DNA from: a virus
Length of the DNA: 52,981 nt
UHGV virus genome: UHGV-1367038
Strand: one strand, 5' to 3'
Shown here: positions 2,374-21,647 of the stretch, piece by piece
Position numbering within the stretch: position 1 is the stretch's first letter
How the letters are laid out: each line of letters starts with the position of its first letter
Notes under the pieces: generated by a model
Told to the model about the DNA's origin: nothing
What the model saw: only the letters and a program-made list of their open reading frames with translations
Databases searched by the model: none
Made by a program: the position numbers and the translations under genes

Positions 2374-4149
2374 ATGATTTACACAACAGGCACGATAGCC
2401 GTTAGCGGAAAAACAGTTACCGGAACGGGGACTGAATTCAACGCCGCATTATCTCTGATCAGAGTGGGTTGCACTCTTATTGCCATTAGTAATCCGGTGC
2501 AGATTTTCTCAATCACAGAGGTAAAAAGCGCGACAAGTTTGTCAGTAACTCCGGCAGCAAGCCCGGCAATTCCGGCTGGAACTAAATTTAGCATCCTGCT
2601 TTCAGATTCGATCTCTGTGGATGGTCTTGCTCAGGATGTTGCAGAAACACTGCGTTACTATCAGGGCAAGGAATCAGAAATAGCTGACGCCGTTGAATTT
2701 TTTAGCGACAACAAAGATGTGATTTCAGCCTCAAAATTAGCATCAGAATCAGCTACCACTGCAACCAATGCGGCAACAACAGCGACAACCGCCGCCAATT
2801 CAGCAAAGACATACAGAGACGAGGCCCACGAATACGCCAATCAGACGGCGCAGCCTTACGCGTATGTTTTGCAGCCGCTGCCGGACGTATGGATACCGTT
2901 TAATGATTCACTTGATATGCTCACTGGCTACGGCCCTGGCACTAAAAAAGTAACCATTGATGGTGAAGAAAAAACAATATCATCAGATAAGGTTGTTTCT
3001 TTCTCACGCGCAAGCACTGCGACCTATATCAATAAATCCGGTGTACTCACCACTGCTGATATTGATGAGCCGCGTTTCGAACGCGATGGATTATTAATCG
3101 AAGGCACACGCACAAATTACCTTACCAATTCTAATACGCCGACGTCGTGGAATGCTAACACAGGCGTCTTAGAATTAACTGAATCAGGGACGGATAGTTA
3201 CGGCTTTAATTATGGAACATTTACATGCACAGCAGATGCGGCATCAACAGCGACGTTAATTTCGACAGGCACATCAAGAGTAATAGCTACCGCATCCGGC
3301 GAATCAGTTACTATTTCCGGGCGCTTTAAGGGTACTGGCGTCCGCGCACGGGCGCGTATCTCAAAACTTAATGAAGATGGATCAGGTAATACATTCATTG
3401 CTGACGCGCTTTTGGATCTTGATACAAAAGTTTTAACGTACGCCGCTAATTATCTATCTGCTTACTTCGTTGATGAAGGAAACGGATGGCTTTTCTTTTC
3501 CACCACGTATACAGCAACCGAAGATATTGACGTCTACGCACGCTTTGAATTATCACCAAAAACCGGGGAAACATTAGCAATAGGCGACAGTATCACCATG
3601 ACCACGCCGCAGTATGAGTCTGGTTCTTGCGCATCATCGTTTATTGTATCAGGTGACAATCCAACCACACGAGCAAGCGACCTGGTAAGCATACCGACTA
3701 AGAATAACTTATTTAAGCCACCATTCAGTTTTTTACTTGAATTACATAAGGAATGGACAACAGCGCCAAACGCAGCACCTAGAGTATTTGATATTGCAAA
3801 CGCAAGCACAGGACAATCTATTATAGCTGCCATTAACAGAGGTAGCAGTAAATTTTACGTTTCCTTGTCTAACAGTTCTGGTGATTACATCAATTCTGCC
3901 GCTGATTCCGTATTGCCAAGTAAAGCCATTGTTGGTGCGGTAGCTAAAGGTGATGATACTTTTCACGCGATCATGGATGGTGTGGCCGTTGCAGATGCAA
4001 CATGTTCTTACGGTGGAGTAACTCAAGGCAAAAACATCAGATTCGGCGGTCAGGTAGCAGACGGAGCGCGCCACTTGTTCGGACATATAAGAAATTTTCG
4101 TATCTGGCACAAAGCATTAACTGATTCTCAATTAAGCGAAATTGTTTAA
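2374..4149 (+). CDS. Side tail fiber protein with C-terminal lectin/LamG-like domain
   Basis: 591 aa; GGAG RBS; N-terminal MIYTTGTIAVSGKTVTGTGTEF typical of enterobacterial phage tail fibers; Ala/Thr-rich shaft; position after J. Confidence 0.6.
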   Translation: MIYTTGTIAVSGKTVTGTGTEFNAALSLIRVGCTLIAISNPVQIFSITEVKSATSLSVTPAASPAIPAGTKFSILLSDSISVDGLAQDVAETLRYYQGKESEIADAVEFFSDNKDVISASKLASESATTATNAATTATTAANSAKTYRDEAHEYANQTAQPYAYVLQPLPDVWIPFNDSLDMLTGYGPGTKKVTIDGEEKTISSDKVVSFSRASTATYINKSGVLTTADIDEPRFERDGLLIEGTRTNYLTNSNTPTSWNANTGVLELTESGTDSYGFNYGTFTCTADAASTATLISTGTSRVIATASGESVTISGRFKGTGVRARARISKLNEDGSGNTFIADALLDLDTKVLTYAANYLSAYFVDEGNGWLFFSTTYTATEDIDVYARFELSPKTGETLAIGDSITMTTPQYESGSCASSFIVSGDNPTTRASDLVSIPTKNNLFKPPFSFLLELHKEWTTAPNAAPRVFDIANASTGQSIIAAINRGSSKFYVSLSNSSGDYINSAADSVLPSKAIVGAVAKGDDTFHAIMDGVAVADATCSYGGVTQGKNIRFGGQVADGARHLFGHIRNFRIWHKALTDSQLSEIV

Positions 4150-4159
4150 GGTGGTTAGC

Positions 4160-4426
4160 ATGAAAGACGTTAGCTTGCAATTTACTGATAAACAGCAATA
4201 CAACGACATTGTGATTAACAGCGGCTGGCTGGACGAAAATCAGCAAACCGTGTTTATTGATGATATTGGTTTTGTTCTTGTATTCGATGATCCAGAAAGC
4301 GACACGCCTGTACTGATTGAGAAAAAAGGCTATTACGTCAACATGCGCATAACTGGTGACGATGTTGATTTGTCGCCGCTGGAAAAATTCATCATTCCAG
4401 ATCCCGGCGTCCGCGCATGGGCTTAA
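4160..4426 (+). CDS. Hypothetical protein downstream of tail fiber
   Basis: ATG with AAGGTGG RBS; 88 aa; the listed ORF start at 4142 is a TTG. Confidence 0.5.
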   Translation: MKDVSLQFTDKQQYNDIVINSGWLDENQQTVFIDDIGFVLVFDDPESDTPVLIEKKGYYVNMRITGDDVDLSPLEKFIIPDPGVRAWA

Positions 4427-4470
4427 TGGTGCGATAGTAACAGCATGGTGATGTTGAAGACATCGCCGCG

Positions 4471-4500
4471 AAACGAGGCTAACGCCTCGTTTCTTTTTGT
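4471..4500 (+). terminator. Rho-independent terminator
   Basis: AAACGAGGC-taac-GCCTCGTTT then CTTTTTGT. Confidence 0.7.
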
Positions 4501-4519
4501 GTACCAAATAGTGACCAAA
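4499..4519. repeat. Arm-type direct repeat copy 1 (GTGTACCAAATAGTGACCAAA), candidate integrase arm site in attP
   Basis: 19/21 identical to copy at 4740..4760; flanks int. Confidence 0.45.
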
Positions 4520-4702
4520 TATCAAAAATCAAAAGCAAAAATAACGTAATACACTGTTTTATAAATGATTATTCGTTGCGCTAACCATTCCAGACAGGAC
4601 CAGCGCACTATGTTTAAAGGTGTTTAACTCCGTTCAATCTCTCCACTAAAATTACTTAAAAATCATCCGGTTGTAACCAAAATCAAGCGTCACGTTTCTA
4701 AT

Positions 4703-5989: not shown

Positions 5990-6159
5990 TAGCGGTACAT
6001 AACGCCACGCCCGGTCCCAAGTACGTCAACCGGGTCGGGGAACGGAGTTCCGTTCCGTTCCCATTTTTTACGCCATAAGTAAAACGTTCCCCTGCTAATT
6101 CCCCCAAGCATCCGGCAGATGGCAGGGCGACTAAGAAGGATTGTCCCGGTTTTATCCAT
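5929..6159 (-). CDS. AlpA-family HTH regulator / putative excisionase
   Basis: 76 aa; AlpA-like HTH (LLSRPAICRMLGGISRGTFYLWRKK); 3' end overlaps int 3' end by 61 nt. Confidence 0.65.
   Translation of the reverse strand: MDKTGTILLSRPAICRMLGGISRGTFYLWRKKWERNGTPFPDPVDVLGTGRGVMYRYQDVMQFFDRIGLTSAKDNT
6038..6070 (+). terminator. Terminator-like hairpin downstream of int, embedded in the AlpA-like coding region
   Basis: GGAACGG-agtt-CCGTTCC followed by ATTTTTTA. Confidence 0.4.
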
Positions 6160-6806
6160 TATTTATCCCCCGTGTATTCAACGTGTCCGATACATCCGTC
6201 TATAATAGCTTGCGCCATGTTGCGATAATCACGCGAATAATCATTATCACGATTGAAATTTATTTCTCCTGCTGCGTCTTCACCAATAACCTTAGTAGCC
6301 AGTGCAAACGCAATTTGCGCCAGTGCTTTTTCTTTCGGATCTATCCAGCGGCGATACCTAAAACGGTTCCATCTTGCTGTTTCTTCACATTTTCCAGTCC
6401 TTCTAACAAATATCCCTATTTCATCGCCAGTAAAAATATATTTGGCTACGCAGTATACAGGCGCAAAGTCACCTGGGTAAAATTCGAGCCATACATCTAA
6501 CGGCGGTCTTTCCCCTGGCTGCCATTCCTCGACTTTTGGTTTATCACAATCATGGCGCTCATCTTCGATTAACTCGTCAATGATTTCACTTTCTTTATTC
6601 ATGCCATCATCATCAATGTTTTTATATTCTTCAAAAACCCATGAAGCCGCCATTACTGAATAAGTGCCGCCAGTATCAGCGCGAACGCCCAAAAGGAAAG
6701 ATGATCCATATTGGTATTCGCTGCGGTATGTAGCAACCTCAAAAGAAGGGTAAAAGTCCGGATCTACACGATGTCGAATTATGCCAATTGCTTTAAGTTT
6801 ATTCAT
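6159..6806 (-). CDS. Hypothetical protein
   Basis: 215 aa ORF; GAGGGT RBS; stop overlaps the AlpA-like start. Confidence 0.6.
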   Translation of the reverse strand: MNKLKAIGIIRHRVDPDFYPSFEVATYRSEYQYGSSFLLGVRADTGGTYSVMAASWVFEEYKNIDDDGMNKESEIIDELIEDERHDCDKPKVEEWQPGERPPLDVWLEFYPGDFAPVYCVAKYIFTGDEIGIFVRRTGKCEETARWNRFRYRRWIDPKEKALAQIAFALATKVIGEDAAGEINFNRDNDYSRDYRNMAQAIIDGCIGHVEYTGDK

Positions 6807-9911: not shown

Positions 9912-11030
9912 TTACAAAATGGAATATTCAGGGTAATAAACAAAGCGCCCAATTTCTCCATGAGCCGGGCTGTAAATAATCACCGCCGCCAGCCGCCGTG
10001 AACGCCAGCCGCCATTCGTCGAGTAAGCATCTTTGCCAGCTAACGTTCCGTGATACTCGACAACGCCTAACGATGATTCAATCAGCCGCTGGTGATGCCA
10101 GTGTCCGCAATGAGCGTAAACCGACGACGATTTACCGAAATCCTCCCGCCAGTCAGAAACACAGGCAGCAAGTAAGGTTTCTGGTTTTTTGATGGTGTGT
10201 CCGTGGTGGTAAGCAAGGAATGTTTTTCCGTATTGTGTGTGGTGGACGATAGCAGGGGACACATCAACCGTTACGCGCGGTTCATCTTCGTAAAAAGCCG
10301 CCAGCGCCGCACGTAGCCAAATCATCCCCGACTGATCGTGATTGCCGGATAACACCTGGATCTCGACGTCCTTATGGTTTAACAACATTTTCCCCACCGC
10401 ACGCCGGACCGACCGGATCGCCACATAAACAAGTTTTGCGTAGCGTGAATCGCAATCTAAGACGTGATTACTTGATGGCGTCACTGGTAATAGCCCGTCC
10501 GTGTGAAGCACATCACCGCCGAGAAGCAATACAGCTTTTTCAGACGTTGGTGCAGCGCCTACAGCGTAGTCAAAGAAGTCATTTAACACGCGTTCAGCGA
10601 TCCCGGTGTCGTAGCTTTCTCCGCATTCAGCTTTATGCGCAAGCGCCCCGATATGCAGATCGAATACCGGATAAAGGGCCAGGCTTTTCTGAAAATCAAT
10701 TTCCGGCACTGGCACGGCTTCCGCGCGCGGCATTTCTTCCGTAAATGCGTCACAAGCTGCCTGCATTAGCCTTTCCATTTCCTCACGGTCACGGGCCGTT
10801 TTAATCCAGCGCATGATTACATTGCCATCTTTATCAACGAGCAATGATTCACCATTGACACCAAAACCCGGCGCGCGGCGCGTGGATATTAAACCGCGTT
10901 TCGCCAGCCGTGCGCCCAGGCGCTCGACGTTGCGTTTTGCCATGCCGTACTTCTCAGCGATCTGTTTATACGTCAGGCCGCTGTTATGTTCAGCGATTAA
11001 TTCCTCATCGCTGATCTTTCTTTGTGACAT
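9912..11030 (-). CDS. HTH domain fused to calcineurin-like metallophosphoesterase (Mre11/SbcD-like motifs)
   Basis: N-terminal HTH (LTYKQIAEKYGMAKRNVERL); DLH, GGDVLH, GNHD, GHWHH motifs; start taken at ATG 11030 with GAGGA RBS (alternative 11045). Confidence 0.6.
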   Translation of the reverse strand: MSQRKISDEELIAEHNSGLTYKQIAEKYGMAKRNVERLGARLAKRGLISTRRAPGFGVNGESLLVDKDGNVIMRWIKTARDREEMERLMQAACDAFTEEMPRAEAVPVPEIDFQKSLALYPVFDLHIGALAHKAECGESYDTGIAERVLNDFFDYAVGAAPTSEKAVLLLGGDVLHTDGLLPVTPSSNHVLDCDSRYAKLVYVAIRSVRRAVGKMLLNHKDVEIQVLSGNHDQSGMIWLRAALAAFYEDEPRVTVDVSPAIVHHTQYGKTFLAYHHGHTIKKPETLLAACVSDWREDFGKSSSVYAHCGHWHHQRLIESSLGVVEYHGTLAGKDAYSTNGGWRSRRLAAVIIYSPAHGEIGRFVYYPEYSIL

Positions 11031-11159
11031 AACGTTATTCCTCATGTTTACAGAATGTATATTTATTTTCCGTAAAACGCGCTACAACGCAAAATCCCAC
11101 CGCGTAACCCACTTATAAGAGTGCAGTGTCTTTCTTGCGTCAGAGGCGCTATCAGGTGG

Positions 11160-14840: not shown

Positions 14841-15289
14841 TGAGTTTAAATTCAATCACGCTTGGCGGGAATATCGGAAACGACATGGAAGTACGCTATA
14901 CGCAAAACGGGAAGGCGATTGGTAGTTTTCCGTTAGCTGTAACGAATGGCTACGGCGATAATAAGCGGGTAATGTGGATCACTTGTCTGGTATTCGGTGA
15001 GCGTGCTGAAAAATTAGCGCCGCATATCCGCAAGGGTGGAAAGATAGTGGTAAGCGGTCGCCTGGATGTTCGGCAATATGACCGGAACGACGGCACGAAA
15101 GGAACGGCGGTAGAAGTGGCGGTTAATGAATTCGAGTTTTGCAGCAGGAATGACCAACAGCAACAACAGCAGAAAGCGCAACCGCAAAACAATAATGGAA
15201 ACTATCCACCGCCGGATGATTTCGATCCAGACATTCCGTTTAGTCCTGTGGGGTTGCAATATGGACGACACAGAATCTACGCGCTATAA
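14840..15289 (+). CDS. ssb: Single-stranded DNA-binding protein with C-terminal extension
   Basis: OB-fold N-terminus; Gln/Pro-rich linker; DFDPDIPF followed by 15 extra residues before the stop. Confidence 0.8.
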   Translation: MSLNSITLGGNIGNDMEVRYTQNGKAIGSFPLAVTNGYGDNKRVMWITCLVFGERAEKLAPHIRKGGKIVVSGRLDVRQYDRNDGTKGTAVEVAVNEFEFCSRNDQQQQQQKAQPQNNNGNYPPPDDFDPDIPFSPVGLQYGRHRIYAL

Positions 15290-15782
15290 ACGATGTTTTA
15301 AATGTGGGGCATTATTGCCCCTTTCTTGTTTCTATAAAAATAAACAAATGGCTGATGGTCACGTAAATAAATGCAAGGAATGCACAAAACGAGATGTTAG
15401 AGATAATTACAGGAAAAATAGAGAATATTACAAGGAATATGACAGAATAAGAGATCAGTCGGAAGAAAGAAAGGAGATGAAAAGAAAGTATATTCAAACC
15501 GAAAAAGGCAAGGAAGCACATAAAAGATGTTGCGATAAATGGCAGGAAAATAACCAGAAGAAAAGACACGCTGAAATAATGGTAGGAAATGCCATCCGTG
15601 ATGGCAAGCTGGTCAAACAACCTTGCGAAGTATGCGGAAGAAGCGAACGCGTTCACGCTCACCATTGCGATTATGATAAGCCGTTAGACGTTATGTGGCT
15701 TTGTCCTATTTGCCATCGAGCGTGGCACAATGAGCATGGTGAAGGAGCCAACGCACATGACGAGGTGGTTAGCGATGGGTGA
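15261..15782 (+). CDS. HNH endonuclease with zinc-finger motifs
   Basis: CFKCG, CEVCG, HAHHCDYDKPLDVMWLCPICHRAWH; start at ATG 15261 inside SSB 3' end. Confidence 0.6.
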   Translation: MDDTESTRYKRCFKCGALLPLSCFYKNKQMADGHVNKCKECTKRDVRDNYRKNREYYKEYDRIRDQSEERKEMKRKYIQTEKGKEAHKRCCDKWQENNQKKRHAEIMVGNAIRDGKLVKQPCEVCGRSERVHAHHCDYDKPLDVMWLCPICHRAWHNEHGEGANAHDEVVSDG

Positions 15783-19223: not shown

Positions 19224-19763
19224 ATGAAAAATGATTTCGGCGGTAGCCATACGCCGCAGGAAATTAAAGACCTATGGCAAACGCCTAAGCCTGTCTTTAG
19301 AGGAATGGATCGGGAATTCGAATTCGTCGCGGATGTGGCGGCAAACAAGGCAAATGCATTAGTTCCGCGATATATAACCGAAGAAATGGACACACTACAT
19401 TATCCATGGGGAGCGGTGGCGATGCCTGGTGAATATGTCTGGATGAATCCACCATATTCTAATCCTGGGCCATTCGTTGATAAAGCGGCGCTGGAACATC
19501 ATCGAAACCATATCGGATGCGTAATGTTATTGCCCGCTGACATTTCTGTTAACTGGTTTATGAACGGCGTGGAGACGGCAAACGAATGCCGTTTAATCAC
19601 GCGCGGGCGACTGGCGTTTATCAATGCCGCGACTGGTAAACCAGTAAGCGGAAACAATAAAGGGAGCTTATTCTTGATCTGGCATCCACGATGCAGACAT
19701 GAATGTATTTTCACGCAGATAACACGTAAAGAGCTATATGCAAGAGGTGCAGAAAATGAGTAA
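19224..19763 (+). CDS. dam: Phage N6-adenine DNA methyltransferase (Dam-like)
   Basis: 179 aa; NPPY catalytic motif (VWMNPPYS). Confidence 0.7.
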   Translation: MKNDFGGSHTPQEIKDLWQTPKPVFRGMDREFEFVADVAANKANALVPRYITEEMDTLHYPWGAVAMPGEYVWMNPPYSNPGPFVDKAALEHHRNHIGCVMLLPADISVNWFMNGVETANECRLITRGRLAFINAATGKPVSGNNKGSLFLIWHPRCRHECIFTQITRKELYARGAENE

Positions 19764-20247
19764 AGCGGCTGAATTGCTAAGACTTGCGGCTGAAACTATT
19801 GAAGCAAGAGGGGAACAAAACGGATACGATCGAAAAGAAGAAAAATCAGCGCCAAAAATAGCCACTATTTACAACGCTAAGAAGGGGACAAATCTAACCA
19901 CGCTTGATGTATGGGATCTACTAATTTGTCTCAAGGAGGCGCGATTAGAGGCCATTTTAAGCAATGGTAGCGACCCGCTCGATACTCTTATAGACCTTAT
20001 TGCTTATAACGCGCTAAAAGCGGAGCAAATATTAACGGAGCGGGAGGAAGAACAAAGAAAGAAACAGGCTGTTTTTGATATGCCGTTAAATTGCGGCTGT
20101 AAGAAAGCCTCAATACCTGGCGACCTGATCGCCAGTGGTGAAGTAACGCTAAATGATAGCTTCCTACTTGATAACGGCTGGCGGTTTAATAAAGAGGCTT
20201 TATTGTATACACCGAAGGATCATAAAGATGGAAAGGGTGATGATTGA
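19756..20247 (+). CDS. Hypothetical protein
   Basis: GAGG RBS; 163 aa. Confidence 0.5.
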   Translation: MSKAAELLRLAAETIEARGEQNGYDRKEEKSAPKIATIYNAKKGTNLTTLDVWDLLICLKEARLEAILSNGSDPLDTLIDLIAYNALKAEQILTEREEEQRKKQAVFDMPLNCGCKKASIPGDLIASGEVTLNDSFLLDNGWRFNKEALLYTPKDHKDGKGDD

Positions 20248-20731
20248 CAGGTTATTAGCCTGCGTTTATGTCGCCGTTTTCGTTATCATCAATCTTATTG
20301 TTAATCACTGCGGCCCGTGGGTAATTCCGATCACCACGGTAGCCGCCGTGTATGTCAATATGATGATCCGTGACTTCCTGTTATATGACGGCGGCCTGAA
20401 ATGGTCGGCTACAACATGCGCCGCCGCTGGCGCAATCACGGTGCTGATAAACTACGATGCCGGAATGGTGGCGATTGCGTCATTCGTCGCGGTTGTTTCC
20501 GGTGCGCTTATTTCTGGCGGTGTTTACAGGATTTTACCTGGCGATTTCGACTCAAAACGCTGGCCTGCGAATATAGCGTCAGCCATTGGCGATTCGTTAA
20601 TTTTCCCCACGCTATCGTTTATGGCATTCATGCCGGAAATATCAGCTATGCAATTCATCTCAAAAATGGCAGCGGTAACGGTGATCACTATCATCATGCG
20701 CCGCTACTTTACATTCGAGGGTAGGAAATGA
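20228..20731 (+). CDS. Integral membrane protein; weak resemblance to YhhQ/DUF165 transporter family
   Basis: Multiple hydrophobic segments; RW...AS..G..D..F..F.AF pattern near C-terminus; family assignment is speculative. Confidence 0.5.
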   Translation: MERVMIDRLLACVYVAVFVIINLIVNHCGPWVIPITTVAAVYVNMMIRDFLLYDGGLKWSATTCAAAGAITVLINYDAGMVAIASFVAVVSGALISGGVYRILPGDFDSKRWPANIASAIGDSLIFPTLSFMAFMPEISAMQFISKMAAVTVITIIMRRYFTFEGRK

Positions 20732-21486
20732 GTGGGCTTAGAAATTGGGTGGTGTGGTCGCTGTACGACGGCAGCGGATACGCCGTTAAAGATTGGGCCG
20801 ACGCTGGTTATAAATGCTATTGCTTCAACTATGATGGCGCTAATCACGGCGATTATGAAGGCGTCAAAATCATTCATCCGAACATTGAGTATGTCAACGT
20901 ATGGATTGACAGCCATTTCCTGGTGATGTTCTCCCCTGAATTGTCTGTATATCCAGATCCTGACATTATTTTGGCCTTCCCGCCGTGCGACGATCTCGCT
21001 GTTTCCGGCGCTCGCTGGTTTGCTGATAAGCGGAAAAAAGATCCTCACTTTCAGGATAAGGCAGCGTATAACGCAAAACTGGTGGAAACGCTGGCTGACA
21101 TGTACCACGTGCCGTGGATGGTGGAAAATCCGGTGGGCGCACTGTCAACGTTATGGCGTAAACCGGATTTTATCTTTAATCCGTGCGCTTACGGTGGTTA
21201 TCTGCCTGAAGATGATGAACATCCATCTTTCCCGGATGTTTACCCTCCGCGCGACGCGTATACGAAGAAGACTTGTATCTGGTGTGGTAACGGATTTAAA
21301 CAGCCTCTTTTTAGACCTGTAGATCTTAACTCTGATGATAACCCTGGCTGGGCGAAAACAGGAGGCAGGACGAAAAGGACTAAGATGATCCGCTCGCTAA
21401 CGCCGCGTGGATTCGCCAGAGCTGTATTCCTGGCTAACGACCGGGCAATCACGAGGACTACTCTTAACCGCGTTTTACCGGATTGA
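20728..21486 (+). CDS. DNA cytosine-5 methyltransferase-like protein (short form)
   Basis: FPPCDDLAVSG resembles C5-MTase motif IV (PPCQxFSxAG); ENPVG resembles motif VI (ENV); DGSG motif I-like. Confidence 0.45.
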   Translation: MSGLRNWVVWSLYDGSGYAVKDWADAGYKCYCFNYDGANHGDYEGVKIIHPNIEYVNVWIDSHFLVMFSPELSVYPDPDIILAFPPCDDLAVSGARWFADKRKKDPHFQDKAAYNAKLVETLADMYHVPWMVENPVGALSTLWRKPDFIFNPCAYGGYLPEDDEHPSFPDVYPPRDAYTKKTCIWCGNGFKQPLFRPVDLNSDDNPGWAKTGGRTKRTKMIRSLTPRGFARAVFLANDRAITRTTLNRVLPD

Positions 21487-21508
21487 TGTTTACAAAATGG
21501 CGTCATTG

Positions 21509-21576
21509 TGTGATGAGGATCACATAATGGCGCTTTATTGCTTGTTCGCATGTATCCGTTTTGTATACTTCAAACA
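21509..21576 (+). promoter_or_regulatory. Conserved intergenic element: perfect CRP-consensus palindrome TGTGA-N6-TCACA plus ATCCGTTTTGTATAC block
   Basis: TGTGATGAGGATCACA at 21509..21524; homologous to 17941..18008. Confidence 0.5.
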
Positions 21577-21647
21577 AACAAAATGCTCTTTAAAAATCCG
21601 GTAACGCTGAAATGCGTAAAAATCACCTGAAAAAAGGAGAGAGCATT

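Follow-up and report, generated by a model that had tools for sequence, protein, structure and literature searches.

Two predicted orphan DNA methylases and a VUT-family membrane protein without DpdA in a probably mosaic delayed-early block of an mEp021-type coliphage

The virus genome UHGV-1367038, a stretch of 52,981 nucleotides that was analyzed whole and is called the window here, carries between positions 19,224 and 21,486 the genes for a Dam-type adenine methyltransferase, a DUF6378 protein, a YhhQ/VUT-family membrane protein, and a short cytosine methyltransferase. The question raised by this locus is whether the four genes work together in a single DNA-modifying pathway, as a preliminary description drawn from the sequence had proposed when it called them an anti-restriction or DNA hypermodification module. 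Judged by its sequence, the window is an mEp021-type (mEp-immI) temperate coliphage, and it is probable from our results that the locus is a mosaic delayed-early block of this phage, containing two orphan methylases of known phage families and a VUT protein that lacks its usual partner, DpdA. Of the two functions proposed for the module, anti-restriction by methylation is plausible, whereas hypermodification is not supported.

Four plus-strand open reading frames (ORFs) fill 19224-21486, where the preliminary description had placed them, and a hairpin follows 13 nucleotides (nt) past the stop codon of the last one. The features, with protein lengths in amino acids (aa) and the ratio of nonsynonymous to synonymous substitution rates abbreviated dN/dS, are as follows:

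19224..19763, plus strand: phage Dam-type DNA N6-adenine methyltransferase, 179 aa (from PF05869, TIGR01712, phrog_111, PADLOC, and dN/dS)
19756..20247, plus strand: DUF6378 protein, 163 aa from its likely start; ORF open from 19738, 169 aa (from PF19905 and phrog_9871/474)
20228..20731, plus strand: divergent YhhQ/VUT-family (Pfam Vut_1, COG1738) multi-pass membrane protein, 167 aa; ORF from 20153, 192 aa (from phrog_4899 and remote homologues)
20728..21486, plus strand: short DNMT3-like "Dcm-like" DNA C5-cytosine methyltransferase, 252 aa (from motifs, phrog_757, and fold)
21499..21534, plus strand: terminator-like hairpin with a 16-bp stem (from a terminator scan and the sequence)

The sequence relationships of the 252-aa protein place it in a known family of short phage C5 methylases that are DNMT3-like and include at least one active enzyme. 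The C5-methyltransferase-like motifs reported earlier are all present, namely motif I (DGSG, residues 14-17), motif IV (FPPCDD, residues 84-89, with Cys87), and motif VI (ENPVG, residues 133-137, with Glu133), and they are conserved throughout 30 homologues, in which G15, S16, P85, P86, C87, E133, N134, and P135 are invariant or nearly so; the protein also carries Lys180/Lys181. It matches phrog_757, "DNA methyltransferase," with an E value of 5.4e-87, and it has no NCBIfam match. The family comprises 2755 clusters in the protein collection, mostly of 226-262 aa, and 1513 phage records, and it includes dcm of phage Tls, the Drexlerviridae genes annotated "Dcm-like C5 cytosine methyltransferase" in the BASEL collection, and members in rV5-like phages and RB49. 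It is therefore true, as had been remarked, that 252 aa is shorter than typical cytosine methyltransferases, yet this length is normal for the family. A precomputed PF00145 match was present for only 4 of 120 homologues, among the matches listed, and a profile-based search of the Protein Data Bank (PDB) gave weak DNMT3B/HaeIII alignments only, with E values of 0.28-0.8. The AlphaFold model built on 30 homologues is nevertheless confident (predicted local distance difference test, pLDDT, 88; predicted template modeling score, pTM, 0.87), and a Foldseek search of the PDB with this model returned DNMT3A/3B catalytic domains at an E value of ~1e-6, which identifies a C5-methylase fold. The preliminary description had allowed that the protein might prove to lie outside the methyltransferase fold, and both the phrog_757 match and DNMT3A/B as the closest fold speak against this. 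A large variable target-recognition domain (TRD) is not found between motifs VIII and IX, where only the ~60 residues at positions 150-215 intervene, with little regular secondary structure among them; the TRD of DNMT3 is comparably small. Identity to the eukaryotic DNMT3A/DNMT3B catalytic domains is just 13-17%, and their regulatory domains are lacking; the likeness is one of fold and is uninformative on specificity.

A biochemical precedent for this enzyme exists in phage K42, a relative of BASEL Bas06, whose 711-bp dcm gene was studied in connection with retron Ec86: mutants that escape the retron disrupt dcm, expression of K42 Dcm, which triggers retron Ec86, raises 5-methylcytosine (5mC) on multicopy single-stranded DNA (msDNA) as measured by liquid chromatography-mass spectrometry, and a C82A/E128A/K175A/K176A mutant is inactive (bioRxiv 10.1101/2023.08.16.553469). 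The 236-aa Bas07 orthologue, to which the window protein is 61.5% identical, has C82, E128, K175, and K176 at exactly those positions, and these align with C87, E133, K180, and K181 of the window protein. By analogy, the window enzyme would be expected to make 5mC. Compared with the PHROG 757 enzymes as a whole (Tls dcm, BASEL Drexlerviridae, K42 Dcm), it has common motifs, catalytic residues, small size, and a DNMT3-like fold, and it is 57-62% identical to the Drexlerviridae enzymes over >90% of its length, differing from them in a C-terminal tail that is ~15 aa longer. The genetic setting is also different, as the Drexlerviridae genes stand alone, whereas the window gene is found in a temperate mEp-immI phage, downstream of a VUT gene that it overlaps. 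Against five mEp-group phages, the dN/dS of the Dcm-like gene is 0.04-0.13.

The first gene of the block was described earlier as a Dam-like adenine methyltransferase with an NPPY motif, and the profile searches agree. Its product matches PF05869 (E 1.8e-51; 174.6 bits against a cutoff of 28.1) over profile positions 1-167 of 169, the NCBIfam equivalog TIGR01712 (139.8 bits against a cutoff of 97.05), and phrog_111 (E 3.5e-63), and the catalytic (D/N)PPY motif is NPPY at residues 75-78 (VWMNPPYS). PADLOC classed it as an orphan methylase, its sole recognition in the block, and dN/dS against the same five phages is 0.03-0.08. In its full-length match above curated hidden Markov model cutoffs and its NPPY motif, it is like the other members of the phage Dam family (PF05869/TIGR01712; phage T1 and Stx/lambdoid phages) and shows no notable difference from them. 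As with these relatives, its expected product would be N6-methyladenine (m6A), presumably at GATC, a specificity that we take from family knowledge. The second gene is less readily placed. The DUF6378 protein matches PF19905 at an E value of 2.7e-6, just above the Pfam cutoff, as well as phrog_9871/474, and since its homologues, of 163-170 aa, have starts equivalent to 19756, that position is the likely start. In the alignment, the first ~95 aa form a conserved helical domain, while the C-terminal half is hypervariable and is not present in a distant metagenomic relative (locus L011). Even among otherwise near-identical prophages the C-terminal half varies, with several distinct alleles, which hints at a diversifying or modular tail. 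The dN/dS of this gene is ~0.2 against mEp-group phages, its AlphaFold2 model, with four predicted helices, is unreliable (pLDDT 52), and a profile search of the PDB gave chance-level matches only.

For the membrane protein, a resemblance to YhhQ/DUF165 had been offered as speculation, and this resemblance is real at the family level. The direct match to Vut_1 (PF02592) falls below the gathering score (13.9 against 27.2 bits; E 0.069), spanning profile positions 7-149 of 152. However, a profile of close relatives run against 1.8 billion representative proteins recovered 257 relatives, and 57 of the 60 remote homologues sampled matched Vut_1 individually (best E 1.9e-16). The protein also matches phrog_4899 (E 5e-45), the PHROG of phage proteins annotated "VUT family protein," retains the family-invariant N22, G29, R48, D49, D122, F131, and K146, and is strongly hydrophobic (grand average of hydropathy, +0.90), with more than one hydrophobic segment; 6 transmembrane helices are annotated in its mEp021 orthologue. 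It is these four lines taken together, the Vut_1 matches of remote homologues, PHROG 4899, the invariant residues, and the hydrophobicity, that establish the assignment. Relative to the consensus of DpdA-linked VUT proteins, the mEp clade carries D44N, H52L, D96S, N112W/P, and S114A while keeping N22, R48, D49, N115, D122, and K146, and these polar-residue changes would fit an altered substrate or role. Among the remote homologues, a QueF-like domain is fused to one and DUF5020 occurs in two, and about one-third of the representative matches are ~290-340 aa long, which suggests further fusions. A search of GTDB representative genomes with the mEp-type VUT query found nothing.

What sets this VUT gene apart is its company. 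YhhQ is a preQ0 transporter, and phage homologues have been noted before (PMC6884629); in phage CAjan, yhhQ lies in a dpdA/preQ0 cluster and is dispensable for modification (PMC7544227). Outside the mEp group, a DpdA-like gene (~250 aa; phrog_887, "queuine tRNA-ribosyltransferase") adjoins the PHROG 4899 homologue in all eight GenBank phages (8/8), and a family-profile search found it directly beside VUT in 75 of 80 IMG/VR loci, at least 3 of the 5 exceptions being cut by a contig end. The window protein shares PHROG 4899 with the VUT members of such pairs (CAjan yhhQ-dpdA, PEAT2 gp18-gp19, Drexlerviridae Opt-719) and keeps the family-invariant residues, but several conserved polar positions are substituted, and a C5 methylase adjoins it in place of DpdA. 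A tblastn search of the window with two VUT-adjacent DpdA-like proteins gave at best E 0.009, over 35 aa, the ten large window ORFs scanned contained no tRNA-guanine transglycosylase (TGT)-like or queuosine-pathway domain, and there was no phrog_887 match among the window ORFs scanned, nor were preQ0 synthesis genes seen among them, some small ORFs lying outside the scan. No other gene of the window recurs beside VUT elsewhere. As DpdA, the guanine transglycosylase by which 7-deazaguanine is put into DNA, is missing from the window, no 7-deazaguanine insertion is predicted, and the hypermodification module of the preliminary description is not borne out. The VUT gene is nonetheless no relic, since its dN/dS against the five mEp-group phages (0.04-0.07) is as low as that of the Dam and Dcm-like genes and its ORF is intact in 45/45 IMG/VR relatives, in which Dam and DUF6378 are likewise always present, whereas the methylase slot is disrupted or missing in some. 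Two further loci bring the different genes close together. In Escherichia phage LHE71 (Tunavirus; L005, 175-854, minus strand), a Dcm-like gene ~2 kb upstream of a VUT-DpdA pair matches in two pieces and may be a frameshift or a pseudogene. In IMG/VR contig 3300017780_001837 (L044, 2258-4623), a 31%-identical Dcm-like fragment lies ~800 bp past DpdA and VUT on the downstream side, and among the 80 loci this one alone has DNA-modifying genes of both kinds close to the transporter.

The behavior of the methylase slot bears on the question of unity. Among 43 judgeable relatives, it is disrupted or missing in 7 (~16%), with an HNH gene instead in 2, the gene gone in 1, and truncation in 4. Escherichia coli STEC308 has the order Dam-DUF6378-VUT-HNH-NinG without the methylase, and in E. 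coli RM9245 an HNH gene lies between a 98%-identical VUT gene and a 52%-identical Dcm-like allele. That the methylase is swapped, truncated, or lost beside an intact VUT gene implies that VUT is retained independently of the cytosine methylase, the latter being a swappable cassette. The ATGA overlap of the two genes, and the same order in the distant relative L011, had made an obligate VUT and Dcm-like pair a candidate, which we rejected because the methylase is replaced by HNH, truncated, absent, or present as a 52% allele beside a near-identical intact VUT. A single unit of four genes acting together, as in the module proposed earlier, is likewise not supported, given that the slot is exchanged independently of VUT and that the Dcm-like gene stands alone in most phages. 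The HNH endonuclease gene (~175 aa) is found right where VUT and the Dcm-like gene join, at 4511-5038 of L096 (STEC308), 4518-5045 of L097 (RM9245), and 4001-4525 of the IMG/VR loci L112 and L116, either inserted at the junction or replacing most of the methylase gene, and the turnover of the slot looks like one driven by a homing endonuclease.

The explanation that we consider probable is that the block is a delayed-early part of the rightward operon in an mEp021-type phage, lying between the recombination/early genes and NinG-RusA-Q. Its four translationally overlapping genes would be co-transcribed, and two of them would encode orphan DNA methylases, each from a known phage family. The Dam-type (m6A) and Dcm-like (5mC) enzymes would be produced in lytic growth and methylate the phage DNA as it replicates, which may blunt restriction when the next host is entered; protection of phage DNA by methylation is plausible and is the best-supported reading of their function. 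The VUT transporter would still work, and selection would maintain it whether or not the cytosine methylase is there, making the block a mosaic "DNA-modification corner" rather than a single pathway. Several points weigh against this explanation. The 252-aa protein has no PF00145 match, no Pfam family at E <= 0.1, and no match in a single-sequence PDB search. Target specificity is no firmer for its homologue, CCWGG having been assumed for K42 Dcm by analogy with host Dcm and not determined (bioRxiv 10.1101/2023.08.16.553469). The BASEL study found no simple link of methylase genes to restriction resistance in Drexlerviridae (PMC8594841), and the paper on the mEp phages reports no modification experiments (PMC11893012). 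Within the block, the DUF6378 protein has no role assignable from its model or the profile-to-PDB search, and the strong selection that keeps VUT without its usual partner is not accounted for.

One alternative is that the 252-aa protein is not a working DNA methylase: it might be a degenerate relic that has no target-recognition domain, or its substrate might be RNA or single-stranded DNA alone. The protein is indeed short, without a PF00145 match or a large TRD, retron msDNA is the sole substrate shown for a homologue, and the gene is dispensable in some relatives. Such a reading is highly improbable, however, as the catalytic motifs are invariant in the family, dN/dS is as low as 0.04-0.13, the closest fold, DNMT3A/B, likewise has a small TRD, and 5mC formation by the homologue depends on the catalytic residues. 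It is also very unlikely, in our judgment, that the block encodes a true hypermodification pathway, in which VUT would import a base precursor (preQ0, preQ1, or similar) and an unrecognized enzyme would install it in DNA, the candidates being DUF6378, a Dcm-like protein with a cofactor other than S-adenosylmethionine, or a non-homologous transglycosylase. This would fit the nearly constant place of phage VUT relatives in DpdA-based DNA-modification pairs, the strong conservation of the VUT gene, and the gene order kept in L011. It does not fit the failure of tblastn to find DpdA, the large ORFs free of TGT or Que domains, the lack of any other window gene that co-occurs with VUT elsewhere, the loss or truncation of the Dcm-like gene in ~16% of relatives with an intact VUT and its 52%-identical allele beside a 98%-identical VUT, or the plain 5mC made by a Dcm-like homologue.

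A different possibility leaves the methylases as they are and concerns the transporter, which might serve host or phage physiology and not DNA modification, by lytic salvage of preQ0, preQ1, or queuine for tRNA queuosine, or by transport of another substrate after DpdA loss; a competitive role, affecting the supply of 7-deazaguanine precursors to DpdA-dependent phages, is also conceivable. Its conservation in 45/45 relatives at a dN/dS of ~0.05 with no DpdA is what such a role would predict, and the mEp-clade changes H52L, D96S, N112W, S114A, and D44N are compatible with a changed substrate. E. coli has its own YhhQ and makes preQ0 de novo, so that salvage looks redundant; moreover, the early lytic operon position speaks against a moron that benefits the lysogen, and any substrate is without direct evidence. 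In favor of such a role, phage YhhQ homologues have been noted to correlate with no one group, and phages that have queuosine-pathway genes without DpdA may boost the supply of queuosine precursors (Hutinet et al., PMC6884629). On balance we regard this possibility as unlikely, though it deserves attention. Narrower, and rather less probable, is the proposal that the mEp-type VUT is a repurposed, DpdA-independent transporter used in lytic growth, which might move a different nucleobase-like molecule, adjust queuosine-tRNA in the host, or change how much 7-deazaguanine precursor reaches competing DpdA-dependent phages; the proposal is prompted by the strict conservation without a near-universal partner and by the clade-specific changes in polar residues.

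The setting of the block is consistent among its relatives. Its DNA is 85-88% identical to that of Escherichia phages MagusPhagus, mEp010, mEp554, mEp044, mEp515, mEp021, and mEp013, in which the same four genes stand before NinG, RusA, and Q. The mEp phages belong to "mEp-immI," a group of Nus-dependent temperate coliphages (PMC11893012). Prophage copies of the cluster occur in 35 of 5426 complete E. coli genomes, and L011 keeps the order Dam-DUF6378-VUT-Dcm-NinG-RusA-Q with VUT and Dcm-like proteins that are 52% and 67% identical. Because the window also contains integrase, CI-like repressor, DnaB, and tail genes, it is close to a whole phage genome. The stop of Dam and the start of DUF6378 overlap by 8 nt (ATGAGTAA), the DUF6378 and VUT genes by 20 nt, and the VUT and Dcm-like genes by ATGA. 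With dN/dS of 0.03-0.25 against mEp-group phages, all four are under purifying selection and are therefore real genes and not chance ORFs. An antisense ORF at 20704-21108 (134 aa) was dismissed as a gene, as it lies wholly inside the well-conserved methylase gene and is without any support. The hairpin at 21499-21534, with a T-rich tract 3' of it, is terminator-like and would close the four-gene block. Its position corresponds to the region of mEp021 where terminator t4 is predicted and a nutR2 site lies just downstream of the cytosine-methylase gene (PMC11893012), and the mEp021 annotation places TERM_4 14 nt past the orthologous methylase gene. Just 3' of the methylase gene, 21499-21620 reads as a long hairpin and then an A-rich stretch. 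Two more early-region genes lie elsewhere in the window, at 15126-15782 and 9912-11045 (minus strand). They are an HNH/endonuclease VII-like gene (phrog_2340), weakly similar to Lar, and, adjoining DnaB, one that belongs to phrog_704, "DNA repair exonuclease." A 215-aa ORF at 6159-6806 (minus strand), flanked by the integrase and NinB-like genes, matches neither Pfam nor any PHROG.

Deposited sequences of mEp021 and related phages already contain this cluster, with its genes annotated as putative, and its novelty is low; the two methylases are of little significance in themselves, as both belong to large, described phage families. There are nevertheless practical implications, in that m6A and 5mC are predicted in the DNA of mEp-group phages irrespective of the dam/dcm status of the host, with consequences for cloning, nanopore basecalling, and restriction mapping. 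The Dcm-like gene may also make mEp-group phages targets of retron Ec86-type defense, as reported for the Drexlerviridae homologue. The modest question that the locus poses is the role of a VUT protein conserved in every relative examined without DpdA, and its substrate would tell whether phage YhhQ reaches beyond 7-deazaguanine DNA modification. If this transporter has indeed been repurposed, a phage homologue of YhhQ would have taken on a novel role.

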